Source: Heptranchias perlo
Taxonomy: Eukaryota
Length of the DNA: 64,000 nucleotides
Direction: 5' to 3'
NCBI RefSeq assembly: GCF_035084215.1
Contig: NC_090348.1
Span: 35,836,001-35,900,000, forward strand
The position numbers and the translations under genes were made by a program. A model generated the notes under the pieces. It saw only the letters and a program-made list of their open reading frames with translations. It was not told where the DNA came from and did not search any database. Shown here piece after piece: positions 1-63,419 of this stretch (positions within the stretch are counted from its first letter, which is position 1; each line of letters starts with the position of its first letter).

Positions 1-127
1 CTATCATGTACATTGGACCACAATTGGCTTCTTAGAATAGAACTAGCCAGAGCATATGACGTGCACGCTCTGACCACTTTCACCAGTGTTAGAGCCGAAG
101 AGTCTCTGGAAAGTTAAGTTTCACATT

Positions 128-7455: not shown

Positions 7456-7589
7456 TGTTCCTATGTGCTGTATCACCCAAATGTTAGGTTAAAATTATCC
7501 CCCGGATCTCTATCCTAACTAGGGGGGGGGGAACTAATAGAATTGGATTGGCCACCCATTTTACACCCTGCCCAACTTTACTTTCCATT

Positions 7590-7897
7590 GACACTTCCAT
7601 TACCATCCCTGGGTATGTCCTGTCCCACCGGCAGGACAGACCCACCAGAGGTGGCGGTACAGTGATATACAGTCAGGAGGGAGTGGCCCTGGGAGTCGTC
7701 AACATTGACTCCGGACCCCATGAAATCTCATGGCATCAGGTCAAACATGGGCAAGGAAACCTTCTGCTGATTACCACCTTCTGCCCTGCCTCAGCTGATG
7801 AATCAGTCTTCCTCCATGTTAAGCACCACTTGGAGGAAGCACTGAGGGTAGCAAGGGCACAGAACGTACTCTGGGTGGGGGACTTCAATGTCCATCA
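7590..7897 (+). mobile_element. Isolated AP-endonuclease fragment of a non-LTR retrotransposon
   Basis: ORF 7548..7943 contains IPGY..RQDR..RGGGTVIY and WVGDFNVHH, typical LINE APE motifs. Confidence 0.85.
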
Positions 7898-8689
7898 CCC
7901 AGCACGTTGCACCAGAAGTTGTCAGCTCAAATGGGAAAAGTGATGGAAAAACATTTCCTTAAAGGGAGTGATGGAGGGAATGAAAAAAAGCCTGCACCAC
8001 TCTTGTGTAATCTGAACAACTAATTCAAGAGCAACACTCGGTGCCTAGAAGCAGGCCACTCTCCCCTTCTCAGGTAAATGGTTTTGGTATCGGAGAACCC
8101 AAATAGGATGGATGAGAGGTTTTGTGTTCATTAATGTAAATTATGTCACCACTGAGCAAATGTGTATTTTTTCACTTTTGCCTCTAATGCAAATATGAAG
8201 TGTCCCCAGGTCGGCAATTCACAGGACAGATGCAAACAATTCAGCCTAACCTCATCTCAAAAAAAGACACTAAAGAATCTCTAAACATTTGAGAGTTCAG
8301 CACACCCAGTACCATTAAGATAAATGGGGGAGGTCCTATCTCGCCAATTTTACTTTGGAAAAATGAGTGTCTAATGCATCAAGCCTTAATAATTTTTCAT
8401 CAGATTTTACCATCTCCCAATCACAGACTTTCAAAAATTAGTTTCAGCTACCAACACAATTCTGTCTCAGTAAGGACAAGAGTGTTCATGTGCGAACAGA
8501 GCAGAGTTGCTAGCTCAAGTTAAAGTTACAAAAAGTAAGGGATTTGGCTCCCAAATTATTTGGCAAAAACTCAAGAACCTCATACCTTGAATGAACTGGC
8601 ACTGCTGGTAGCAGAATAGAATAGAATCACTACCACTGTGATTGCCACCAAAAAAGTCTTCAAATTTCTCCTCTTCTAGAGGCACTGAC

Positions 8690-9498
8690 TTTTTTTTTAT
8701 TCGTTCACGGGATGTGGGCGTCGCTGGCAAGGCCGGCATTTATTGCCCATCCCTAATTGCCCTCGAGAAGGTGGTGGTGAGCCGCCTTCTTGAACCGCTG
8801 CAGTCCGTGTGGTGACGGTTCTCCCACAGTGCTGTTAGGAAGGGAGTTCCAGGATTTTGACCCAGCGACAATGAAGGAACGGCGATATATTTCCAAGTCG
8901 GGATGGTGTGTGACTTGGAGGGGAACGTGCAGGTGGTGTTGTTCCCATGCGCCTGCTGCCCTTGTCCTTCTAGGTGGTAGAGGTCGCGGGTTTGGGAGGT
9001 GCTGTCGAAGAAGCCTTGGCGAGTTGCTGCAGTGCATCCTGTGGATGGTGCACACTGCAGCCACAGTGCGCCGGTGGTGAAGGGAGTGAATGTTTAGGGT
9101 GGTGGATGGGGTGCCAATCAAGCGGGCTGCTTTATCTTGGATGGTGTCGAGCTTCTTGAGTGTTGTTGGAGCTGCACTCATCCAAGCAAGTGGAGAGTAT
9201 TCCATCACACTCCTGACTTGTGCCTTGTAGATGGTGGAAAGGCTTTGGGGAGTCAGGAGGTGAGTCACTCGCCGCAGAATACCCAGCCTCTAACCTGCTC
9301 TCGTAGCCACGGTATTTATATGGCTGGTCCAGTTAAGTTTCTGGTCAATGGTGACCCCCAGGATGTTGATGGTGGGGGATTCGGCGATGGTAATGCCGTT
9401 GAATGTCAAGGGGAGGTGGTTAGACTCTCTCTTGTTGGAGATGGTCATTGCCTGGCACTTATCTGGCGCAAATGTTACTTGCCACTTATCAGCCCAAG
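8690..9498 (-). mobile_element. 5'-truncated CR1-group LINE (family A, poly-A tail)
   Basis: WADKWQVTF, YKAQVRSVMEY, KKAAHHHLLEGN, a short 3' UTR and an A tail. Confidence 0.93.
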
Positions 9499-9589
9499 CT
9501 GGGGTATCATTCCACAAGTGACATCAGGACTCCATTATCTAGCCCAAGCAGCCATTTTCCATGTATGAGGCCAGATACTGAATGTTGAT

Positions 9590-9822
9590 AGGCTAATTAT
9601 ATAATGTCCTGGATAATATTTATCCCTTGACCAACACCTAAAAACAAATTTTCTGGTCATTATCATATTGCTGTTTGTGGGATCTTGTTGTACACAAATT
9701 GGCTACCGTGTTTTCTGCATTACAACAGTGACTACACTTCAAAAGTACTTTGTTGGCTGTAAAGCGCTTTGGGACGTTCTGAGGTCGTGAAAAGTGCTAC
9801 ATAAATGCAAATCCTTCTTTCT
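9590..9822 (+). mobile_element. Shark SINE 3' part (SacSINE1/DeuSINE-like, L2-type tail)
   Basis: ttgctgtttgtgggatcttg..aaattggct..cttcaaaagtact..aaagcgctttgggacg..ataaatgcaa; related copies recur in the window. Confidence 0.75.
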
Positions 9823-10005
9823 TCTAATTGACCACGGAGGGCATCTTATCTTGTTCCTTTCCTCAGACATCCATATACGCACAATTTCCATTAGGATTAA
9901 TTGGATAATTATCAAAGAGTGGCTGATTCTCCTTTTCACTTCCACTTCCCAAAGGACACTGGTGCCAATTACAGGACCTCTAACGTTGCCCCAACTAAGA
10001 TCACC

Positions 10006-11982
10006 TTTTTTTTATATTCGTTCATGGGATGTGGGCGTCGCTGGCGAGGCCGGCATTTATTGCCCATCCCTAATTGCCCTCGAGAAGGTGGTGGTGAGCC
10101 GTCTTCTTGAACCGCTGCAGTCCGTGTGGTGACGGTTCTCCCACGGTGCTGTTAGGTAGGGAGTTCCAGGATTTTGACCCAGCGACGATGAAGGAACGGC
10201 GATATATTTCCAAGTCGGGATGGTGTGTGACTTGGAGGGGAACGTGCAGGTGGTGTTATTCCCATGTGCCTGCTGCCCTTGTCCTTCTAGGTGGTAGAGG
10301 TCGCGGGTTTGGGAGGTACTGTCGAAGAAGCCTTGGCGAGTTGCTGCAGCGCATCCTGTAAATGGTACACACTGCAGCCACTGTGCGCCGGTGGTGAAGG
10401 GAGTGAATGTTTAGGGTGGTGGATGGGGTGCCAATCAGCGGGCTGCTTTGTCCTGGATGGTGTCGAGCTTCTTGAGTGTTGTTGGAGCTGCACTCATCCA
10501 AGCAAGTGGAGAGTATTCCATCACACTCCTGACCTGTGCCTTGTGAGATGGTGGAAAGGCTTTGGGGAGTCAGGAGGTGAGTCACTCGCCGAGAATACCC
10601 AGGCTCTGACCTGCTCTCGTAGCCACAGTATTTATATGGCTGGTCCAGTTAAGTTTCTGGTCAATGGTGACCCCCAGGATGTTGATGGTGGGGGATTCGG
10701 CGATGGTAATGCCGTTGAATGTCAAGGGGAGGTGGTTAGACTCTCTCTTGTTGGAGATGGTCATTGCCTGGCACTTATCTGGCACGAATGTTACTTGCCA
10801 CTTATTAGCCCAAGCCTGGATGTTGTCCAGGTCTTGCTGCACGCGGGCTCGGACTGCTTCATTATTTGAGGGGTTGCGAATGGATCTGAACACTGTGCAA
10901 TCATCAGCGAACATCCCCATTTCTGACCTTATGATGGAGGGAAGGTCATTGATGAAGCAGCTGAAGATGGTTGGGCCGAGGACACTGCCCTGAGGAACTC
11001 CTGCAGCAATGTCCTGGGGCTGAGATGATTGGCCTCCAACAACCACTACCATCTTCCTTTGCGCTAGGTATAGCTCCAGCCACTGGAGAGTTTTCCCCGA
11101 TTCCCATTGACTTCAATTTTACTAGGGCTCCTTGGTGCCACACACGGTCAAATGCTGCCTTGATGTCAAGGGCAGTCACTCTTACCTCACCTCTGCAATT
11201 CAGCTCTTTTGTCCATGTTTGGACCAAGGCTGTAATGAGGTCTGGAGCCGAGTGGTCCTGGCGGAACCCAAACTGAGCATCGGTGAGCAGGTTATTGGTG
11301 AGTAAGTGCCGCTTGATAGCACTGTCGACGACACCTTCCATCACTTTGCTGATGATTGACAGTAGACTGATGGGGCAGTAATTGGCCGGATTGGATTTGT
11401 CCTGCTTTTTGTGGACAGGACATACCTGGGCAATTTTCCACATTGTCGGGTAGATGCCAGTGTTGTAGCTGTACTGGAACAGCTTGGCTAGAGGCGCAGC
11501 TAGTTCTGGAGCACAGGTCTTCAGCACTACAGTCGGGATGTTGTCGGGGCCCTTGGCCTTTGCTATATCCAGTGCACTCAGCCGTTTCTTGATATCACGT
11601 GGAGTGAATCGAATTGGCTGAAGACTGGCTTCTGTGATGGTGGGGATATCAGGAGGAGGCCGAGATGGATCATCCACTCGGCACTTCTGGCTGAAAATGG
11701 TTGAAAACACTTCAGATTTGTCTTTTGCACTCACGTGCTGGAGTCTGCCATCATTGAGGATGGGGATGTTTGCAGAGCCTCCTCCTCCCGTTAGTTGTTT
11801 AATTGTCCACCACCATTCACGACTGGATGTGGCAGGACTGCAGAGCTTTGATCTGATCCGTTGGTTGTGGAATCACTTAGCTCTGTCTATAGCATGTTGC
11901 TTCCGCTGTTTAGCACGCATGTAGTCCTGAGTTGTAGCTTCACCAGGTTGGCACCTCATTTTTAGGTACGCCTGGTGCTGCT
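10006..11982 (-). mobile_element. ~2 kb 5'-truncated CR1-group LINE (family A) with a frameshifted RT
   Basis: KAKGPDNIP, NYCPISLL, QFGFR, LDIKAAFDRVWH, GVPQGSVLGP and FADD split across several frames. Confidence 0.95.
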
Positions 11983-17074: not shown

Positions 17075-18697
17075 GCTGCTAAACCTTTATAAAACACTGA
17101 TTAGGCTTCAGCTGGAGTATTGTATTCAATTCTGGGCACCACACTTCAGGAAGAATGTCAAAGCCTTAGAGAGGGTACAGAAGAGGCCAACCATCTCAGC
17201 CCCAGGACATTGCTGCAGGAGTTCCTCAGGGCAGTGTCCTAGGCCCAACCATCTTCAGCTGCTTCATCAATGACCTTTCCTCCATCATAAGGTCAGAAAT
17301 TGGGGTGTTTGCTGATGATTGCACAGTGTTCAGTTCCATTCACAATCCCTCAGATAATGGAGCAGTCTGTGCCCACATGCAGCAAGACCTGGACAACATC
17401 CAGGCTTGGGCTGATAAGTGGCAAGTAACATTTACACCAGACAAGTGCCAGGCAATGACCATCTCCAACAAGAGAGAGTCTAACCACCGCCCCTTGACAT
17501 TCAATGGCATTGCCATCGCCGAATCCCCCACCATCAACATCCTGGGGGTCACCATTGACCAGAAACTTAACTGGACCAGCCGCATAAATATTGTGGCTAC
17601 AAGAACAGGTCAGAGACTGGGTATTCTGCGGCGAGTGACTCACCTCCTGACTCCCCAAAGCTTTTCCACCATCTACAAGGCACAAGTTAGGTGTGTGATG
17701 GAATACTCTACACTTGAATGGATGAGTGCAGCTCCAACACCATGCAAGAAGCTCAACACCATCTAGGACAAAGCAGCCCTCTTGACTGGCACCCCATCCA
17801 CCACCTTAAACATTCACTCCCTCCACCACCGGCACACAGTGGCTACAGTGTGTATCATCTACAAGATGCACTGCAGCAACTCACTAAGGCTTCTTTGACA
17901 GCACCTCCCAAACCTGCGACCTCCACCACCTAGAAGGACAAGGGCAGCAGGCACATGGGAACACCACCTGCACATACCCCTCCTAGTCACACACCATCCT
18001 GACTTGGAAATATATCACTGTTCCTTCATAATCAATGGGTCAAAATCCTGGAACTCCCTACCTAACAGCACTGTGGGAGAACCTTCACCGCACGGACTGC
18101 AGTGGGTTCAAGAAGGCGGCTCACCACCACCTTCTCAAGGGCAATTAGGGATGGGCAATAAATGCTGGCCCACATCCCATGAATGAATAAAAAAAAGATT
18201 TACTGGAATGGTACGAAGGATGAGGGACTTCAGTTATGTGGAGAGACAGGAGAAGCTGGGGTTGTTCTCCTTAGAGCAGGGACGGTGAAGAGAAGATGTG
18301 ATAGAGATGTTCAAAATCATGAAGGGTTTAAATAAACTAAATAAGGAGAAACTGTTTCCAGTGGCAGAAGGGTCGGTAACCAGAGGACGCAGATTTAAGG
18401 TGATCAGCAAAAGAACCAGAGGCGACATAAGGAAACATTTTTTATGCAGTGAGTTGTTATGATCTGAAATGCACTGCCTGAAAGGGTGGAGGAAGCAGAT
18501 TCAATAGTAACTTTCAAAAAGGGAATTGGATAAATACTTGAAGGGAGAAAATTTACAGGGCTATGGGGAAAGAGCAGGGGGTGGGGTGGGGGGGGGGGGT
18601 GGTGGTGAGACTAATTGGATAGCTCTTTCAAAGAGCCAGCACAGGCACGATGGACTGAATGGCCACCTTCTGTGCTGTACCATACTATGATACCATG
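17075..18697 (+). mobile_element. CR1 3' fragment interrupted by a nested family A LINE
   Basis: CR1 ...gagagggtacagaagag resumes as gatttactggaatg at 18197; terminal ctatgataccatg. Confidence 0.88.
17186..18196 (+). mobile_element. 5'-truncated CR1-group LINE (family A) nested in CR1
   Basis: GVPQGSVLGP, FADD and WADKWQVTF, then an A tail at 18189-18196. Confidence 0.93.
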
Positions 18698-20708: not shown

Positions 20709-21616
20709 TTTAATATATTTTAAAAATACATTGCAAAACAATTTTATAAAAATTAGATAATTCCATTTTTCCCTTTCGTTCAGATATACATACATTATTT
20801 TGTCACACGACGGTGAGTGAAAACCAATCTAAAAATGGAACATTTCTCATTTTTGAACTCTGTCAGCATTAATCCTTTTTTTAGGATAGACATAACTTGG
20901 GCTAGATGTAGGTTAAAGCTGTGCATACACTGTCCCAATAATTCATCTTAACTCCAACCTCAAAAGTATTTGTGCTACATTAGGCTGACAACATAATTTC
21001 TCACACCTGCCATCCTTATGGCCTCTCTACTGGAGATGGCCAATTATAGCCAAATTATAGGCAGTTTTGTGCAGTGGAATCATGCATGTTGTGAACAGAG
21101 AGAGGTGTTGTACATTTGCTCTTCAATAATAGATCAATTTCTCTTCATTACTGACTGCCTGCTTACCTGTATAGGTGCACATGGTAAAGCAACCCCAGCT
21201 GTTTAAGAAGAAATTAAGAAAAACACCTTGTAAGCCTTACTTTAAAAAATATATATGCATACAACCCCCTGTTTAGGATTTATATCTGAAAGAATAAAAG
21301 CAGGATTTTTTTTCAGGTGTATGAGAGAGAACAGTTCAAGGAAATTTAACAGATTCAAGGAAATAATATCTAGCAATTATAGGTAATGCCCCTCCTCTTC
21401 GCCCCTCCAAGCATAAATGGTCACAGTCAGTTGGAAAGAAATGTTAAAAAGTGATATTTCCAATTCAGCTCAATTAAAATACTGCTGATCCATGATGATT
21501 TGTTTGAAATCTGATTTTGCCACAAACTTGTACAACATTTCGCAAATGTCATCAATTCCAAGTCAGTTGTTTTGTCGTACCGAAAGTCAATAACGCACAT
21601 TTGGAGCCTATCCTGG

Positions 21617-22326
21617 TTTGTATTGCTGCAGTTATATAAGGTATTGGTGAGACCGCACCTGGAATACTGCATACAGTTTTGGTCTCCATACTTAAGAAAA
21701 GACATACTTGCTCTCGAGGCAGTACAAAGAAGGTTCACTCGGTTAATCCCGGGGATGAGGGGGCGGACATATGAGGAGAGGTTGAGTAGATTGGGACTCT
21801 ACTCATTGGAGTTCAGAAGAATGAGAGGTGATCTTATTGAAACATATAAGATTGTGAAGGGTCTTGATCGGGTGGATGCAGTAAGGATGTTCCCAAAGAT
21901 GGGTGAAACTAGAACTAGGGGGCATAATCTTAGAATAAGGGGCTGCTCTTTCAAAACTGAGATGAGGAGAAACTTCTTCACTCAGAGGGTGGTAGGTCTG
22001 TGGAATTTGCTGCCCCAGGAAGCTGTGGAAGCTACATCATTAGATAAATTTAAAACAGAAATAGACAGTTTCCTAGAAGTAAAGGGAATTAGGGGTTATG
22101 GGGAGCGGGCAGGAAATTGGACATGAAGCTGAGTTCGGATCGGTCAATGCCCTGTGGGTGGCGGAGAGGGCCCAGGGGCTATGTGGCCGGGTCCTGCTCC
22201 GACTTCTTGTGTTCTTTAGATTTGTGGTTGGGATCAGATCAGCCATGATCTTATTGAATGGCGGAGCAGGCTCGAGGGGCCGATTGGCCTACTCCTGCTC
22301 CAATTTCTTATGTTCTTATGTTCTTA
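21617..22326 (+). mobile_element. Young CR1 3' end with intact ORF2 C-terminus and a double 3' tail
   Basis: LYKVLVRPHLEYCIQFWSP...RRMRGDLIETYKI...FFTQRVVGLWN; ends in (ttcttatg)n. Confidence 0.93.
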
Positions 22327-26184: not shown

Positions 26185-27085
26185 ATAGTGAACAATGAGG
26201 AGGATAGTGATAGACTTCAAGAGGATATAGAGACAGGCTGGTGGAATGGGCGGACACGTGGCAGATGAAATTTAATGCAGAAAAATGCGAAGTGATACAT
26301 TTCGGTAGGAAGAACGAGAAGAGGCAATATAAACTAGGGGGCACAATTCTAAAAGGGATACAGAAACAGAGAGATCTGGAGGTATACGTACACAAATCAT
26401 TGAAGATGTCAGGGCAGGTTGAGAAAGCAGTTAAGAAAGCATAGAGGATCCTGGGCTTTATAAATAGAGGCATAGAGTACAAAAGTATGGAAGTCACGAT
26501 GAACCTTTATGAAACATTGGTTCGGCCTCAACTGGAGTATTGTGTCCAGTTCTGGGCATCGGACTTTAGGAAAGATGTGAAGGCCTTAGAGAGGGTGCAG
26601 AAGAGATTTACTAGAATGATTCCAGGGAAGAGGGACTTTAGTTACGTCGATAGACTGGAGAAGGTGGGGTTGTTCTCCTTGGAGCAGAGAAGATTGAGAG
26701 GAGATTTGATAGAGGTATTTAAAATCATGAAGGGTCAAGACAGAATAGATAGAGAGAAACTGTTCCCATTGGCAGAAGGGTCAAGAACCAGAGGACATAG
26801 ATTTAAGGTGATTGGCAAAAGAATCAAAGGTGACATGAGGAAAAACTTTTTTTTTTTAAAAAGACAGCATGTGGTTAGGATCTGGAATGGACTGCCCGAG
26901 GGGATGGTGGAGGCAGATTCAATCATGGCCTTCAAAAGGGAACTGGATAAGTACTTGAAAGGAAAAAAATTGCAGGGCTACATGGATAGGGTGGGGGAGT
27001 GGGACTAGCTGGATTGCTCTTACATAAAGCCGGCATGGACTCAACGGACCGAATGGCCGCCTTCTCTGCTGTAACCTCTCTTTAA
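26185..27085 (+). mobile_element. CR1 3' fragment
   Basis: WADTWQMKFNAEKCEVIHFG, RPQLEYCVQFW, RGDLIEVFKI. Confidence 0.93.
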
Positions 27086-41256: not shown

Positions 41257-42655
41257 ACATAGGAACAGGAGTAGGCCATTTAGCCCCTTGAACCTGTTCT
41301 GCCAATGAGATCATGGCTGATCTGTGACCTAACTCCATGTACCCGCCTTAGCCCCATATCTCTTACTACCTTTGGTTAACAAAAATCTATCAATCTCATT
41401 TTTAAAATTAACAATTGAACTAGCATCAGCTGCTGTTTGCGGAAGAGAGTTCCATAGTTCCACTACCCTTTGCGTGTAGAAGTGTTGCCAAACTTCACTC
41501 CTGAAAGTCCTGGCTCTAATTTTTAGGCTATGTCCCCTAGTCCTAGACTCCCCAACCACCAGAAATAGTTTCTCTCTATCTACCCTATCAGTTCCCCTTA
41601 ATATCTTGAAAATTTCGATCAAATCACCCCTTAATCTTCTAAATTCCAGGGAATACAACCCTAGTTTGTGTAATCTCTCCTCGTAATTTAACCCTTGGAG
41701 TACAGGTATCATTCTAGTAAATCTACGTTGCACTCCTTCCAAGGCCAATATATCCTTCCTAAAAGTACGGTGCCCAGAACCAAATACAGTACTCCAGGTG
41801 TGGTCTAACCAGGGCTTTGTATAGCTGTAGCATAACTTCTACCCCCTTGTATACTAGTCCTCTAGATATAAAGGCCAGCATTCCATTAGCCTTTTTGATT
41901 ATTTTCTCTACCTGTCCATGACATTTTAATGATCTATGTACATGGACCCCTAAGTCTCTTTGGACCTCCACTGTTGCGAGCTTTTCACCATTTAGAAAAT
42001 ACTCTGATCTATCCTTTTGAGGTCCAAAGTGGATGACCTCACACTTGCCTACACTGAAATCCATTTGCCACAGTTTTGCCCATTCACTTAATCTATCTTA
42101 AAATCTCTCTAATTTTATGCTTCCATCTACACTGCTTACAATGCTGCCTATCTTTGTGTCATTTGCAAATTTGAATATGCGGCTCTCTATCCAGTCATCT
42201 AAGTCATTGAAGCCCCATCACAGATCCCTGTAAGACAACACAAGTCATATACTGCCAATTTGAGCACCTGCCCATTATCCCTACTCTCTGTCTCCTGCCG
42301 CTCAGCCAATTTCCTAACTGGGTCAATAATTTGCCTTCAATTCCATGAGCTCCAACATTAGCTTACAGTCTCTTATGAGGGACTTTATCAAATGCCTTCT
42401 GGAAGTCCATATAAACAACATCCATAGACATTCCCCCCGTCCACTACTTTAGTTACCTCTTAAAAAAATTCAATCAGGTTCGTCAGGCATGACCTGCCTT
42501 TTGCAAATCCATGCTGGCACTCTGATCAACTGAAAATTTTCAAGGTGTCCAGTCACTCTACCCTTAATTATAGGCTCCAGTAATTTCCCAACAGATGTTA
42601 GGCTAACTGGGTCTATAATTTGCTGGTTTCCTCTCTCACCTTTCTTAAATAGCAG
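41257..42655 (-). mobile_element. CR1 LINE 3' ~1.4 kb with internal deletions
   Basis: ORFs 41329..41748, 41759..42064 and 42470..42703 carry CR1 ORF2 motifs. Confidence 0.93.
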
Positions 42656-45888: not shown

Positions 45889-45995
45889 GGCTGAGTCAAG
45901 TCATGAGTAACAAAGTCAGAACTTTTCAAGAGCAGGAAGATGTCACTCAAATTATTGCACTTGAGGGAGCTGTTCATTGCAATCCATTGAGCATC
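45889..45995 (-). CDS. CDC123: CDC123 exon 6
   Basis: Encodes DAQWIAMNSSLKCNNLSDIFLLLKSSDFVTHDLTQP; 107 nt; partly visible as ORF 45795..45977. Confidence 0.98.
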
Positions 45996-46249
45996 CTAAG
46001 GTGGGAGAAGAAACAGACAGATGTAAAAGAATTATTGGGTATGGGCCATGTGGTCATTCTGAAGCTGACTGACATTATCTTGCCTATTCAGTCACAAAAT
46101 ACAAATTAAATTAGACAACAAAATACTTTGAATGTTTTTCATTTTAATTTCTTCTGCTTTTAGTTTTGAAACAATTTTATTTTGATTTAAATATGTAGAA
46201 AAATGGTTGAAATTTTAAAGAATTGTCAACTAGAATTGTTAATTGTCAA

Positions 46250-47416
46250 CTGCCTCAGCACATCTGCTGCTGAAACCCTCATCCATGCCTTTGTTACCTC
46301 CAGACTGGACTATTCCAATGGTGTACTGGCTGGTCTCCCATAGATTCATAGAAGGGTTACAGCGCGGAAGGAGGCCATTCAGCCCATCGAGTTTGTGCCA
46401 ACTCTATGCAAGAGCAATCCAGCTAGTCCCACTCCCCTGCCCTATCCCTGTAGTCCTGCAATTTTTTTCCTTTCAAGGAATTATTCTATTCCCTTTTGAA
46501 AGCCACGATTGAATCTGCTTTCTCCACCGCCCCGGGCAGTGCATCCCAGATCCCAACTACTCGCTGCCTAAAGAAGTTTTGCCGCATGTCACCTTTGGTT
46601 CTTTTGCCAATCACCTTAAATCTGTGCCCTCTGGTTCTTGACCCTTCCACCAACAGGAACAGTTTCTCTCTATCTACTCTGTCTAGATCCTTCATGATTT
46701 TGAATTCCTCTATCAAATCTCCTCTCAACTTTCTCTGTTCAAAGGAGAACAACCCCAGCTTCTCCAGCCTATCCACGTAACTGAAGTCCCTCATCCCTGG
46801 AATCATTCTAGTAATGGCACGCAGCCAAATCAAAGAAGAGGAACTCTCCTTTTCCCTCCTTCCTCTTGAAGTCTTGCCCAGAATGAGTCAGCTCCTTCAA
46901 GATCTTCCACCCTCCATAAACGTATGCTCATCAAAAACTCTGCTGCCATATCCTAACTCAGACCAAGTCCTGTTCTTGCTGACCTACATTGGTTCCTGGT
47001 CCAGGTACGTCTCAATTTTAAAATTCTCATCCTTGTTTTCAAATCCCTCCATGGCCTTGCACCCTCCCCCCCCCCTCTCTGTAACCTCTTCCAGCTCTAC
47101 AATCCTCCGAGATCTCTGCGATCCTCCAATTCTTGCCTCTTGCACATCAGAGTTTAAATCGCTCCACCATTGGCGGCCGTGCCTTCAGCTGCCTAGGCCC
47201 TAAGCTCTAGAATTTCTCCCTAAGCCTCTCCACTTCTCTCTCCTCCTTTAAGACGCTCCTTAAAACCTACTTCTTTGACCAAGCTTTTGGTCATCTGTCC
47301 TAATACCTCCTTATGTGGCTCAGTGTGAAATTTTGTTTGCTAACACTCCTGTGAAGCACCTTGGGACGTTTTACTATGTTTAAAGGCGCTATATAAATGC
47401 AAATTGTTGTTGTTGT
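46250..47416 (+). mobile_element. L2 LINE 3' region with a nested CR1
   Basis: AETLIHAFVTSRLDYSN motif; tail aaggcgctatataaatgcaaat(tgt)n. Confidence 0.85.
46339..46815 (-). mobile_element. CR1 3' fragment nested antisense in L2
   Basis: TRMIPGMRDFSYVDRLEKLGLFS..RGDLIE; tail catagattcataga on the + strand. Confidence 0.9.
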
Positions 47417-48289
47417 AGTAGAAAGCCAACATTTTTTTCTTGAAGTTATTAATGTTATTGTCTTTTTGGCAATTTTCCCAATAAAATAGATGATGTCAAA
47501 GTGCTGCTTATTTGGTGTCTATAGTAAGTTGGTGATAGAACACACATGCTATAAAATGTGGTTAATCTTATGGACTCAAGAATTCATTGCGACACTATTA
47601 GGTTTGTGCCGCCAGTTCTAACAATTCAGGTCAGAGTACAAAATAATCACTTTAGACAACAGAGAAATAAACATTTCACCTTAAGGTCATCACAAATATG
47701 CAACCAGAAAATTTTAAGAAAATGGGCAATTGTTGAAATTATAATCTGCAATTTCTGGGATTACAATCTACAACCACAATGGTGTGAAACAAAGAAAAAT
47801 ACAAAACTTGTGTGTGACAGGAATTTTTAGCTGCAAACATTCTTGAACAAAATTTGGGCAACAGTGGTGGGTGGTCAAAATTTAAGCAAAACAAAACACA
47901 TTTCGCACAAGAGTGACAACTTTTATGACAACCATTAACTACCTAACAAAATATACCCAGACCTAGACACAGGAGTAATCAGACTCATCAACTGAACCTC
48001 CCACTCAACCTTGGATACTTGGTTTATAGGAGCTGTGAGTCATAGTTGTGCATTGCACAGAAGATATATGTTAAAAGTCTATTAATAGAGAATAAACTTG
48101 AGAGTATAACAGGTTAGGTTTTTGCTCATTCATAGTCAACGACCAGAAAATCTAGCCCTATACATTTTGTACAAGTACATAGGATTGAAAAGATTGCTTA
48201 CATAAATTCTCCAGCTGGAACAAATCTTCTCTGGCATTTTATTGTAAAACAAAATTCTCTTGATCGGGTGGTAAAACCAGTGAGTAGTC

Positions 48290-48612
48290 AAGCCATACAG
48301 ACTAGGAAGGGCATAGGCTTTATTCCTGGTTTGTGCTGAGTTATCTCATCTCTGGTAGAATGGTATAAGGGACATTACAATTGGTATCAGTGCCCTTGCT
48401 GGATTAGCCAGTGTTCTCACAACTGATTGCTATCTACTGTGCTTGGACATGGATGTGGACAGCGTCAGGTTCAGCTCGGATTGTGATCCCCTATTCATAG
48501 TCCACTAACTTGTCAACATTCAGATCTGAAAAATGACCATTTGGGCAAGGCACAGAGGGGGCACAATCAGTGCCTGTGGAATCATACCCCAGTATATCTT
48601 CAGAGAAGGGGG
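48290..48612 (+). mobile_element. Ancient tRNA-derived SINE (same family as 13710)
   Basis: cagactaggaagg..cctggtttgtgctgagttatct..acaattgg..cagtgccc..atgaccatttgggcaagg..ggaatcatacccc. Confidence 0.55.
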
Positions 48613-49707
48613 ACTAAAGCTACCGTCTGTTGAATTAGTTTTAAAAGAATTCTGTTAAATTCTCAATTTCTTTCATACAAGATAATTCCAACTCTTGTTA
48701 AACAGATGTGCCACCTAATGATAAAAATCGAGTACTACAGATTACAGTGATTTCTTATTTCACATGCCTCAACTTTTAATAAATCTTTTCCTCCAAGTTA
48801 CCCCACACTTTTTCCCCGCAGTAGATAAGGAAAGGCAAAATAACCTTTTCCAGCCAATGCCAACGATGGGGGTGGGGGAGATGGGAAATAGACCAAATGT
48901 GAAACAGAAAGGCTTTTGAAATCATGGAAGGTAGTGAGGCAAAGTGGCTTTGGGAGAGAATTCCAGAAGCAGGGCTTAATATGGCAATGGATTAGCCAGA
49001 ATACATTGTCAACTTATTGAGAGAAGTTTTATTTAGGCACAGATTATCCCAAATTAAATCTACTTTCATTGAACCCATACTAATTTTTCCTCTTGTCGAA
49101 CAGGTATCTTGGCCATAGGAGGTGCATGTCAGGCAGAACAGGGAACAGGAGACAATGGAAAAAGATGAATTCATACCTGTGTACGTGAGCACGCGCACAC
49201 ACACTCTAGGTGTCGGTTAGCTAGCAACTGAATGGCAAAACCATACGCTGGTCACAGATATTAACTGTCCCTACCAATGTCAAACTATGTCCCAGCTCAC
49301 AATCTGTTTTTTTTGTCTCTGGATTTCTGTGTATCCGTCCACTCTGCCATCGGGAGAAGCCCTTTCAATCATCAAGGCTATTGAATCTGGAATTCCATTT
49401 CTAAGCCCCTTTGTCCTGCTACATCTCTCCCCACGTTCAAAAGCCCTCTCAAAACTCATCTCTTCGAACGAACCTTCAGTTGCCTGCCCTAGCCGGCATC
49501 CATTACGTCCCCTTTGTGAAGTGCTTTAGGACGATTTACTCCAATAAAAAGTGCTATACAAGTGTCAGTTGTTAAGATGATCAAATCTGAAATTTCATGA
49601 TATCTTCAGAAATTTGGATAAAATTATTGAAGAGATCTTATAATTGAAATATATTAACAGCCTTAAATGCATTTTTCTTCATTTTTGCTTGTCATAACAG
49701 CAGTGGA

Positions 49708-49945
49708 TCATAGAAAATTCAGACTAGAAGGCCATTGGCCATCATGCCTGTACTGGCTCCACACTAAAGCTATTTACTCTAATATAATTTCCTTGTTCCA
49801 TCCCTGTACTCTTGAATATCTTTATTCAGGTGTTTAATCTAATTCCTTCTTAAACGTTGTGACTGACTTGGCTTTAATAGCCATTTGTGGCAAAGCATTC
49901 CAATATTTTAGTTATCCTTTGAGTGAAAAATATCTTCTAACCTCC
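49708..49945 (-). mobile_element. Degenerate CR1 3' end
   Basis: tcatagaa..ggccattggccatcatgcctgt..aaagcattcca..gtgaaaaa. Confidence 0.6.
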
Positions 49946-50826
49946 TATGCTCAGCATCCCCCCACAGGCTGAAATCACAAACTCAGCAGGGGTGAAATCA
50001 AACATGTTTTCACTCTTCTCTGATGCCACATGCAGGTGTTCCAATCCTTTCTGCTATCATTTTCTCCCATACTTCCAATTTTGTTTTCAACCAGGTCAAA
50101 TCTTCCCCAACCAAAACTACTGGACTTGTTTTCAGGCTTGTCTCATAAGTCATTCCATATTTGACCTTTAGAAGGAGAAGGATGGTGTAAATTCACTCTT
50201 TCAATTTTCTCTCCTTCCATTCAGTCCATCCCCAGACAAGATTGAAACTGATCATGTGGTTAAAAGGAATACACACATCCCATTTCTTTGTAACACAGCA
50301 TAACACACTGACAAGCTGCATCACCAGTCACGACCGACTACTCTTGATTCTGATCAGATCCACAAGTCAGTCATTATAATACAATGCGACAGTAATGCCC
50401 ACAGATCCCCTGGCTTGGGTTTATTTTTTCAAATTCCCAATGGTCCAGTTGATTGCCTTAATTTTTAAATTAGACCTGACTCAACTTCAGAAAATAAGGA
50501 GCCTTACCCTCTAGGCAACTTGACTATAACACTTCAGTAAAGATTGGTGAAGCCATTCAAGACCTATTTGATTCCTCCTTTTTGGCACTGACAGACGTGA
50601 CCAAAGTATGGTGACAGAATGATAACCAATTAGAATTAGTCTACATCCACAAGAAACTGAAGATTGATTCACAAACATCGTAAAGCCAATTCAGAATTTG
50701 CTTCACTATTATTTAAACAATCAAAATGTACAGATTTTGTTTAAAAAAGATCTACAATAGACCAATACTGTCTGATACAATCACATCCCGTCTTAAATAA
50801 AATATTCTTTGCATATTCTAGCCCAT

Positions 50827-51054
50827 GATGTGGAGATGCCGGTGATGGACTGGGGTTGACAATTGTAAACAATTTTACAACACCAAGTTATCGTCCAACA
50901 AATTTATTTTAAATTCCACAAGCTTTCGGAGGCTTCCTCCTTCCTCAGGTGGTGTGGGCCACACCACCTGAGGAAGGAGGAAGCCTCCGAAAGCTTGTGG
51001 AATTTAAAATAAATTTGTTGGACTATAACTTGGTGTTGTAAAATTGTTTACAAT
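50827..51054. mobile_element. Penelope-like inverted terminal element (palindrome) with 13-bp TSD
   Basis: Arms 50861-50957 and 50959-51055 are reverse complements with 1 mismatch. TSD tattctagcccat at 50814-50826 and 51055-51067. Confidence 0.85.
50964..51000 (+). ncRNA. Minimal type I hammerhead ribozyme motif (mirror copy on the minus strand at 50916-50952)
   Basis: CCAC-CUGAGGA-A-GGAGG(aag)CCUCC-GAAA-GCUU-GUGG: stem I, core, stem II, GAAA and a palindromic AAGCUU helix III. Confidence 0.7.
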
Positions 51055-51222
51055 TATTCTAGCCCATTCACAGTAAACAGATGCAAACCAGATATAAATT
51101 TGCTTTTCATTTGTCAAAGTTTTCCTCGAGGATGACTGAAGCTGACCTGTATAAAACTAACTTTAGAAGACTGGCAGCAAAACCTTCCAAAACAAGTTGT
51201 ATTTCTTCCCTAAGTTTCTTAC

Positions 51223-51318
51223 CCTCGGAGCGCTCCAATTAAGCTTGGGAAAAACACTGCCTCCAAGAGAGTTTATAGCTTCCTGTACTTTTGCTGAAAA
51301 ATCTGGGAATTCTGGAGC
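51223..51318 (-). CDS. CDC123: CDC123 exon 5
   Basis: Encodes [32 protein letters not shown], including the PKLNWSAP family motif; 96 nt, AG/GT flanks. Confidence 0.98.
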
Positions 51319-52955: not shown

Positions 52956-53390
52956 ATAAGAGTGAGGGAGGCCACTGGGGTTATAAGGTCACGGTTAACA
53001 TCCATGATTCTCTTTTCTGCCAAGCCATATGGGGAATTTGCCGAGTTGAGGCCAGGTGCTTCTGCAGCCAAAAAAAAGCACTGTTGAAAGATAGTTGACC
53101 TAGGTTGCTTTCACTCATCTTTGTACCCCGTTACACAGCATCATTGGCAAAGCTCTGGGAACAATAGCCCCTGCTGCCTCTTGGCTAGGGAATGGCATAA
53201 CACCAAAATTACTAAAATTAAGTTCAGCAATAAATGCTACAATCCCACTGCCTTTCACCTAACCAATTTTCTTTGCTGTGTCCTAAAATAAAAGGTTAGT
53301 CACTGATAAGTTATAAATGATATTCAGCCAAGGCACTAGTCATATTAAACACAATTATAACAGCTACATATATGCAAGTACACCCCTTAC

Positions 53391-53423
53391 CGTAAGTGTT
53401 GTCACATTCTCATCATCTGACCA
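53391..53423 (-). CDS. CDC123: CDC123 exon 4
   Basis: Acceptor catgtag, donor GTAAGG; encodes WSDDENVTTLT; 33 nt. Confidence 0.95.
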
Positions 53424-53550: not shown

Positions 53551-53611
53551 CTGGATATCCTGTTCTTCATCACTGCCGTCATCTGCACGTGAATAACTTG
53601 GGACTTCATTT
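53551..53611 (-). CDS. CDC123: CDC123 exon 3
   Basis: Acceptor gtttcag, donor GTCAGT; encodes NEVPSYSRADDGSDEEQDIQ; 61 nt, restores frame (cumulative 207). Confidence 0.93.
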
Positions 53612-58554: not shown

Positions 58555-58626
58555 CTTCCAGAAACCACCAGTGTGCCATCATCCAGTAAATAATCAATTA
58601 CATTTTGCGGCAGTGGGAGAATAATA
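58555..58626 (-). CDS. CDC123: CDC123 exon 2
   Basis: Acceptor ttttacag, donor GTAAG; encodes IILPLPQNVIDYLLDDGTLVVSGR; 72 nt. Confidence 0.97.
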
Positions 58627-62434: not shown

Positions 62435-62508
62435 CTCTTAATGGTGTACTTCTTAAAGAGCGGGTACCACACCGACAACTGACACCTCAGTACCTGCTCC
62501 TTCTTCAT
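62435..62508 (-). CDS. CDC123: CDC123 exon 1 (eIF2 assembly factor, ATP-grasp protein)
   Basis: ATG at 62508 gives MKKEQVLRCQLSVWYPLFKKYTIKS, close to human MKKEHVLHCQFSAWYPFFRGVTIKS. Donor AG|GTGAGT; 74 nt. Confidence 0.96.
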
Positions 62509-62509
62509 T

Positions 62510-62660
62510 CTCACTGACGCAGCTCAACTTCCCTCCGTCGGAAGTGTCCGGCTCTCAAACCATTCCCCCCAGTCCGCGTGAGAGGATGGGTGGGGGAGGC
62601 AGAAAAACGCCTCACCGCCGGAGAACGAGGCATCGTCGCCAGTGAAAAGTTCCGAGGTGT
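62510..62660. promoter_or_regulatory. CDC123 CpG-rich promoter with ETS/GABP-type sites, probably bidirectional
   Basis: CGGAAGTG at 62539-62546 and an inverted ACTTCC at 62527-62532; CpG-dense; no evident TATA box. Confidence 0.7.
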
Positions 62661-63419
62661 CTTGTATTTTATTCTTTTCGATCATTCTTACTGTATCCTC
62701 TCAGTTATTGATACAGTACCAGTTTATATTTAGTTTTTAAAAATCACGTTTTTTTATTTAATAAAATAGAGGGGATTCAAATAATTTGACGATTTTTTTT
62801 ATATGCCGGGTCATCAACGGCAGAGCCAAAAGAAAAAGCGCGAGTGGCAGGTATGCAGTGGGACAGGCTGTGTGTGAAATTTTAATTTAATTTTTAAATC
62901 GTTAATCATTATTTTTTTTACAATGTCTAGCGCTGTTATTACGGGAGGAGGGGGAATAGTTTCACTTCTTGTTAATTTCACGGAAATCTCCCCTTCAAGT
63001 TCCTTAAGGCTTAGTTTGACGTAAGAGAAGAAGTGACGGTTTAAGGGAGAATTGATTTATTATTATAATTATTAATCGCAAATTATTTAAATTATAGATC
63101 AGTTTTCTCTACCTTGTTAATTTTATTGTCATTGTGGATGTTGGATCTGTATAATGCATTCAGTTAATATATACATATTCTCTAGAGGAAAAATAAACCC
63201 CTAGGTGTGTTCAATTAGTCTTTTGTGTCAGACTTGCCTTTTGTTCAGATTGTTTTTATGGTATTTAAATTCTCTATTTTCTTTTCAATCGCACTCAATT
63301 CAATTTTTGCTTAAACTTCAGTGTTTTAAAGACTGTCATTTTTGGCCTTAGAATTCTATTTAATAATATTCATATTATCACATCAAAAAACTTCAAACTG
63401 TGAAGTGCAGTGCCTCTTA

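Follow-up and report, generated by a model that had tools for sequence, protein, structure and literature searches.

Penelope-like elements (PLEs) have already been described as leaving insertions with inverted pseudo-LTRs (pLTRs), a tail and a target-site duplication (TSD) (PMC3846280, PMC8557442, PMC8969392), and, in the portions of PMC3846280 and PMC8557442 available to us, the inversion was ascribed to self-priming and the tail to resolution by the endonuclease. A linker of the form CX2-5CxxC is given in the accessible part of PMC8557442 as a trait of the Neptune and Nematis clades. Minimal hammerhead monomers did not cleave, according to the sections of PMC4209133 at hand. In Anolis, as far as the accessible text of PMC11167929 goes, hammerhead cleavage needed the protein of the element and the hammerhead was unnecessary for insertion; in the in vitro assays with the Poseidon element of Anolis carolinensis (PAc), each of the two strands was cut and extended, the template was mainly uncut RNA and a dimer was predicted. 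For the Penelope of D. virilis, an internal TATA-less promoter was reported in the available part of PMC2377424. The insertion analysed here is of a kind that is already known; the family member is new, and the locus is an ordinary one, i.e., one of thousands of Penelope stubs. The insert consists of the head-to-head pLTR ends of a Penelope element that is presumably of the Neptune type. It probably arose in one event, in which reverse transcription of the RNA leader would have been primed by both nicked target strands and the resulting pair of short cDNAs joined at their ends.

The palindrome in intron 5 of CDC123

The window, i.e., the whole stretch of 64,000 nucleotides of the Heptranchias perlo genome that was analysed, carries exons matching Pfam D123 on its minus strand, and six exons of CDC123 were placed using spliced contigs (62435-62850, 58555-58626, 53551-53611, 53390-53423, 51222-51317 and 45889-45994). 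On the evidence of both the Pfam model and the contigs, exon 5 has 96 nt (51222-51317) and the host intron 5 has 5,227 nt (45995-51221). By the spliced contigs, the insert is located inside this intron, 154-166 nt past the exon 5 donor, which is close to the position of about 170 nt past that donor given in the initial annotation. Intron 5 is spliced out in the contigs (X1-X4) of a single sample, which cover the repeat via its other copies and not the flanks of the locus. These contigs, from four runs that we guessed to be RNA, also hold the pLTR (50824-51058 of the window) at a very high word depth with a peak over the tail, a depth that sums many copies and is no measure for this locus. An A>G row at 50898 in the contigs is indistinguishable from paralogue variation. 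Elsewhere in the window, the frames at 7488-11872, 17170-17805, 21515-22126, 26445-27008, 41329-41838 and 46486-46887 resemble what we take to be RT fragments of CR1/L2-type LINEs.

The insert consists of two inverted arms of 97 nt, 50861-50957 on the minus strand and 50959-51055 on the plus strand, which are separated by a 1-nt spacer at the arm-arm junction (50958) and differ from each other only at C50892 as compared with T51024. The minus-strand arm, which is sense in the CDC123 pre-mRNA, is followed by an unpaired extension of 34 nt (50827-50860, minus strand). This extension is the Penelope tail, which, judging from the 3'-end counts, lies between the two 3' end points and reaches up to the start codon of the ORF (CAT at 50824-50826); in full-length copies it runs to the ATG and continues into the ORF. 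The plus-strand arm is antisense in the pre-mRNA and has no tail. Both arms contain an AATAAA, at 50903-50908 on the minus strand in the tail arm and at 51008-51013 on the plus strand in the tail-less arm; the hexamer of the tail arm, which is found in 483 of 488 arms, may be the poly(A) signal of the element. The direct repeat of 13 nt at 50814-50826 and 51055-51067 is the TSD, and its edges are shared with the element, as the final four bases of the left copy (ATGG, 50823-50826) double as its start-codon sequence on the minus strand and T51055 is also the last base of the arm. The arm length of 97 bp, the single mismatch, the 1-nt spacer, the 34-bp extension and the AATAAA in each arm, all of which were proposed initially, were borne out by these coordinates. 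The TSD that was described as a clean one of 13 bp was recovered as a 13-nt repeat with ends that overlap the element, in a family in which the TSDs of 160 pairs measured most often 12 nt (75 pairs), followed by 13 nt (40 pairs).

The palindrome is not a product of chance. Perfect palindromes are a known class of assembly artefact, which is what speaks for a fold-back of the assembly at this locus. Such a fold-back is nonetheless very unlikely, and we give it next to no weight, because the TSD is clean and at least 3,307 sites at which two cores face each other at no more than 19 nt were counted genome-wide as compared with 21 for a control pattern. The arm mismatch, the one-sided tail, which is the rule in 160 of 163 pairs, and the TSDs of 12-13 nt in 115 of 160 pairs also speak against it.

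When the minus strand was folded, a single hairpin was obtained in which the 34-nt extension stayed open (-165.6 kcal/mol, z -32, equalled by none of 200 shuffles). In the pre-mRNA, the tail-less antisense arm precedes the sense arm, which carries a hammerhead and the tail. A 97-bp hairpin is predicted to form in this RNA and to keep the hammerhead unfolded because the antisense arm, which is transcribed first, would pair with the emerging sense arm. This prediction agrees with the earlier suggestion that the ribozyme core is sequestered, as the core is buried within the hairpin of the minus-strand fold. The further suggestion that the hairpin acts as a protector of the pre-mRNA found no evidence: single-arm and long copies are also common, there is one sense hammerhead per strand, and in the accessible printed record such motifs are without monomer cleavage (PMC4209133) or protein-dependent (PMC11167929). 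Having neither a promoter nor an ORF, the stub is most likely inert.

The parent element and its hammerhead

The window arm with its tail is identical at 134 of 135 nt to the 5' pLTR of L164, a copy of 3.0 kb that carries the helix I variant of the window and an open RT and GIY-YIG frame of 892 residues (P0002; RVT_1 at E 3e-9, GIY-YIG at E 8e-5, a hit above the cut-off). The young age and the origin from a Penelope pLTR that were claimed for the insert are both upheld by this match, the latter also by the full-length copies with RT and GIY-YIG, and L164 is the kind of full-length partner that was to be sought as a check. It is near certain, as judged from these similarities, that the insert is a stub of a Penelope-like element, i.e., its pseudo-LTR end. 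P0002 has 3,204 relatives at E<=1e-20; the closest named ones are shark proteins with 78-93% identity, followed by proteins from turtles and invertebrates with at most 44%, and a search of the PDB by sequence found no relative. A C-x4-C-x2-C linker precedes its C-terminal endonuclease, and by this linker the element is classified as Neptune or Nematis. The RT motifs and the vertebrate host presumably point to Neptune over Nematis. The single ORF with RT, a CX2-5CxxC linker and GIY-YIG at the C terminus is shared with the PLEs of these clades as described in the available part of PMC8557442, whereas no strict microsatellite targeting was apparent in the shark flanks that were seen.

Direct units of about 3.0 kb are present in L061, L062 and L164, and inverted pairs in L063-L073. 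L062 was considered as an intact parent and was ruled out by an in-frame stop in the endonuclease domain (L062:2144-2146, minus strand) of its otherwise open frame of 813 residues. Head-to-tail triples with a spacing of about 3.08 kb were observed at G000:C1:188733840-188740035 and in L289, and nine ORF-start matches exactly 404 nt apart at G000:C2:21273044-21276305 represent a tandem array of the pLTR-ORF junction. Additionally, about 260 residues of a shark protein model, epn2 isoform X2 (P0023), are 96% identical to the Penelope ORF, which is either an exonised element or an annotation error.

The plus-strand hammerhead (50964-51000) was read from the sequence, with C3 at 50968, CUGAGGA, an extra A, GAAA and the palindromic AAGCUU, and with helix I at 50964-50967/50997-51000, helix II at 50976-50980/50984-50988 and a predicted cut after 50996. 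Its mirror copy on the minus strand (50916-50952), whose assignment is based additionally on helix pairing across subfamilies, has a predicted cut between 50920 and 50919, so that the hammerhead core that was proposed for each strand is indeed found on both. All of the features of the minimal type I are present, namely the CUGANGA and GAAA core, NUH, an extra base after A9, G10.1-C11.1 and the palindromic 15.2-16.2. Among 481 arms, N7 was G in 354, C in 123 and T in four, and the extra A was present in 480, the core itself having been required by the search. The helix alignment comprised 30 of the 45 haplotypes that were seen at least twice, after seven with junction-derived first columns and eight two-copy variants were left out. 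Helices I and II were paired in 92.4% of the cells of these 30 related rows as compared with 24-48% in slid controls, a score that is inflated by the choice of haplotypes, as five of the eight omitted two-copy variants are pair- or core-breaking. A change on both sides was seen in 4 of 11 helix pairs, a count that was matched by 88 of 500 shuffles.

The check with hammerhead models that was recommended initially was negative: the Rfam hammerhead models gave no match up to E 10, and the only models that fitted, below their gathering score, were miRNA models that fit any perfect hairpin. The single-strand folds of the bare hammerhead were no better than shuffles (z -1.6 to 0), which is to be expected because the motif has no helix III. 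The core, the extra nucleotide after A9, G10.1-C11.1, the palindromic 15.2-16.2 and the absence of a helix III stem are in common with the minimal hammerheads of metazoan PLE pLTRs in the accessible text of PMC4209133. Opposite-strand pairs about 100-700 bp apart are also reported there, while the shark cores face each other at 0-19 nt, and helix II has 5 bp here as compared with 7-8 bp in the Schistosoma hammerheads (PMC4209133).

Palindromes across the family and the pairing of their arms

The genome search yielded 2,238 candidates, of which 40 were scored, and 29 other fetched loci hold the whole unit at 93-97%. Exact matches genome-wide amounted to 62,622 for the arm-end 25-mer, 14,742 for the tail end, 3,480 for the core of the window's subfamily and 829 for the ORF start. 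For the most part, the family samples described below were taken from the initial third of contig C1 and from exact-match, and hence young, copies. Short palindromes made up at least 23 of the 73 loci in a sample of the window's subfamily taken in order of position, with a classifier that overlooks decayed partners, and the rest were single arms and long copies; this is a sample-level counterpart to the genome-wide count of palindromic and single-arm copies that was suggested as a check. Such numbers, together with the at least 3,307 short palindromes genome-wide and five centres that recur two to four times, are what one would expect from a non-autonomous, hammerhead-only palindromic family that is copied as a unit in trans and whose hairpin was selected to spare host RNAs. 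We give this explanation very little credence, and the self-standing unit of about 230 bp mobilised in trans that was postulated at first did not hold up. In a sample of 101 short palindromes that includes nine loci chosen for recurring centres, 91 centres were distinct, and the commonest of the recurring ones occur in both orientations to the tail (6 vs 7) and on different helix II variants. The lengths of the inverted pairs form a continuum from 57 to 4,082 nt (163 pairs), with short palindromes grading into kilobase inverted copies, and the window's variant is present in the open-frame, full-length L164. A fixed internal structure that derives from master copies, as in a SINE, retrozyme or MITE, was not found. 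Moreover, missing from the stub are the TATA-like box and the ORF start that had to be present in the template for the Anolis protein, according to the available part of PMC11167929.

The 3' ends of the arms are bimodal. Among 98 arms (100 listed minus two segmental duplicates), the end point is the ATG in 43, and in 50 it is a place about 35 nt earlier. Exactly one tail was found in 160 of the 163 pairs mentioned above, which include 108 of 111 pairs obtained by tail-blind searches. Two of the three exceptions are tail/tail cases, both of them junctions in the interior of longer tandem insertions, and in addition to the three another tail-less pair was observed. The arms of a pair are also very similar to each other, with a mean of 1.16 differences within pairs as compared with 4.25 between loci and with 71 of 146 pairs identical. 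Common variants were found in both arms 283 times and in one arm 67 times, private variants in both arms four times and in one arm 68 times, and 20 rare variants were shared by both arms. As the arms mostly agree, the two templates would usually come from one source; fold-back or gene conversion would account for the agreement as well.

According to the self-priming explanation, which is drawn from the accessible parts of PMC3846280 and PMC8557442, one cDNA folds back and copies itself to give the mirror arm, and the endonuclease trims one end and leaves the tail. The near identity of the arms, with four private and 20 rare variants in both, and the microhomology at many centres are in line with this explanation, but we consider it unlikely for the family. 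In 39 mixed pairs, the tail-less arm extended further 5' in 16, the tail arm in 12 and neither in 11. The class in which the tail-less arm is longer is out of reach for one tail-primed cDNA folding back on itself, as it offers no template for a partner longer than itself, and a cDNA without the tail has none to pass on, so that two primed cDNAs would be the simplest solution. Tail-less ends are found, too, at the termini of direct, non-inverted copies (L061 and L062). At some centres, foreign filler is placed between two arms that both reach the 5' hot spot, and L059 combines, within a single 12-nt TSD, two arms that are unlike at three subfamily sites. Both the filler centres and L059 fit the end-joining of two molecules. 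Short palindromes with different subfamily variants in each arm were observed in L059, L364 and L206; L364 has filler in its centre and no TSD.

We therefore consider the two-primer step to be likely. In the course of events that we favour, the endonuclease would nick both strands about 12 nt apart, one 3'-OH would prime at the ATG, giving the tail, and the other would prime 34 nt further 5', giving none, with the RNA coming mostly from one source copy. Repair would then join the 3' ends of the two cDNAs via microhomology, trimming or filler.

The 5' hot spot and the known modes of priming

The 5' ends of the arms are concentrated in a hot spot. Of the 98 arms, 44 end within a 13-nt window from -21 to -9 relative to C3, where the stop rate is 0.039 per nt as compared with less than 0.001 beyond -100, and single-arm copies with 12-nt TSDs (L100 and L233) end at the same place. 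Each arm in the window stops 9 nt 5' of C3 in the hammerhead, and the RNA start that we propose would lie about 3-4 nt beyond this point. Long copies of most subfamilies have TATAAA 36-47 nt before C3; the window's own subfamily has the degenerate box TTTTAAAA or TTTTCAAA instead. Two further position-ordered samples of 96 and 61 arms were analysed (156 after one duplicate was dropped), seven of which had no matching reference and were omitted from the TATA test. Across subfamilies, the modal arm end moves with the TATA box, being at -17, -10 and -6 from C3 and each time at about TATA+29..30. When the ends were counted from the TATA box, the best 4-nt window took in 34 of 65 arms, as compared with 27 of 65 when they were counted from C3 (permutation p 0.0002). 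In one subfamily (L137, L155, L165 and L166), which has a short palindrome upstream of the hammerhead, five of six arms end 6-7 nt upstream of the TATA+30 prediction.

The hammerhead cut site was considered as the stop hot spot and was rejected: eight short arms ended near it in one sample, only 1 of 61 ended within 3 nt of it in the second, and none of the 156 ended on it. The last figure indicates that the template is mostly uncut. Within +27..+37, there are 9 of the 156 ends.

The chance that the hot spot is a run-off at the 5' end of the RNA, whose start is placed from the DNA ends, is somewhat better than even. An explanation that keeps the two cDNAs but takes the hot spot as an RT stall or processing site at the edge of helix I, and not as a transcription start, appears quite unlikely to us. 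In the window's subfamily and several others, the hot spot does coincide with the 5' edge predicted for helix I, the TATA box of the window's subfamily is degenerate, and the sharp stop that was predicted at TATA+28..32 in near-full-length copies was found in none of the 36 copies that reach at least 500 nt into the ORF; 16 of them extend past -144, and the ends of the other 20 are spread over -69 to +83, as at a broad barrier over the leader. However, the subfamily in which helix I ends at -6 has its modal arm end at -10, i.e., at TATA+30, and, as the RT reaches the 3' strand of the helix first, a stall would be expected on the opposite side. In the 36 long copies of L399-L448, it was also observed that no 5' end lies inside the tail; the ends start at +83 from C3, beside the start site of the tail-less arm, and are spread out upstream of it, as would be the case if a cDNA primed at that site stood in the way.

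Retroviral strong-stop DNA is a short, tRNA-primed run-off cDNA of the RNA leader that is normally not integrated. In the two-primer explanation that we prefer, the RNA would begin with the 5' edge of the hammerhead, about 30 nt behind the TATA-like box, and both cDNAs would copy the uncut hammerhead and run off the 5' end of the RNA after about 100-140 nt, much like strong-stop DNA. A more far-reaching proposal, which we consider less likely than not, is that the pLTR is a true U3-R-U5 LTR. Transcription would begin at the 5' edge of the hammerhead, the AATAAA would end the RNA within the 3' repeat, and a dimeric RT-endonuclease would prime both nicked strands at two fixed leader sites. Tens of thousands of integrated strong-stop cDNAs would then have been paired into hairpins, and long copies would be made only when the cDNA jumps to the 3' repeat. 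Compared with the internal TATA-less promoter of the D. virilis Penelope in the accessible part of PMC2377424, the promoter type would be different here.

A search of the Penelope literature by title, which covered mostly open papers without Repbase or supplements, found nothing on a two-primer or strong-stop mechanism or on this shark family; Fig. S2 of PMC11167929, which shows insertion ends, may bear on the question. The family constitutes a large natural record of Penelope-like insertion, a step that was left open in the available text of PMC8557442 and PMC11167929. From the one-tail rule, the 12-nt stagger and the 5' hot spot, exact predictions can be drawn for an in vitro assay with the natural open-frame protein. 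If real, thousands of near-perfect hairpins of 80-100 bp in shark introns would be a sizeable putative source of dsRNA.

The insertions of the shark family and those of the EN+ PLEs, including the D. virilis Penelope (as described in the accessible parts of PMC3846280, PMC8557442 and PMC2377424), have in common the head-to-head pLTRs, a tail of 30-40 nt at one end (34 bp in D. virilis), a TSD, partial tandems and a strong 5' truncation. In the shark, by contrast, the product found most often is the bare leader pair, of which there are thousands of copies; the 5' hot spot is sharp, and the TSD mode is 12 nt. The two RT start sites that bound the tail in PAc resemble the bimodal 3' ends found here, but the ORF of PAc begins inside the hammerhead and its start sites are about 111-118 nt into the ORF, whereas the tail ends at the ATG in the shark element; the available text of PMC11167929 does not derive the inverted copies from two primers. 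Our interpretation brings the shark insertions close to other known modes of priming. In the twin priming of L1, both nicked strands prime on one RNA, which results in a 5' inversion. In L1, the internal sites at which the second primer anneals vary and there is no overlap between the two parts, whereas in the shark family the sites do not vary and one arm mirrors the other.
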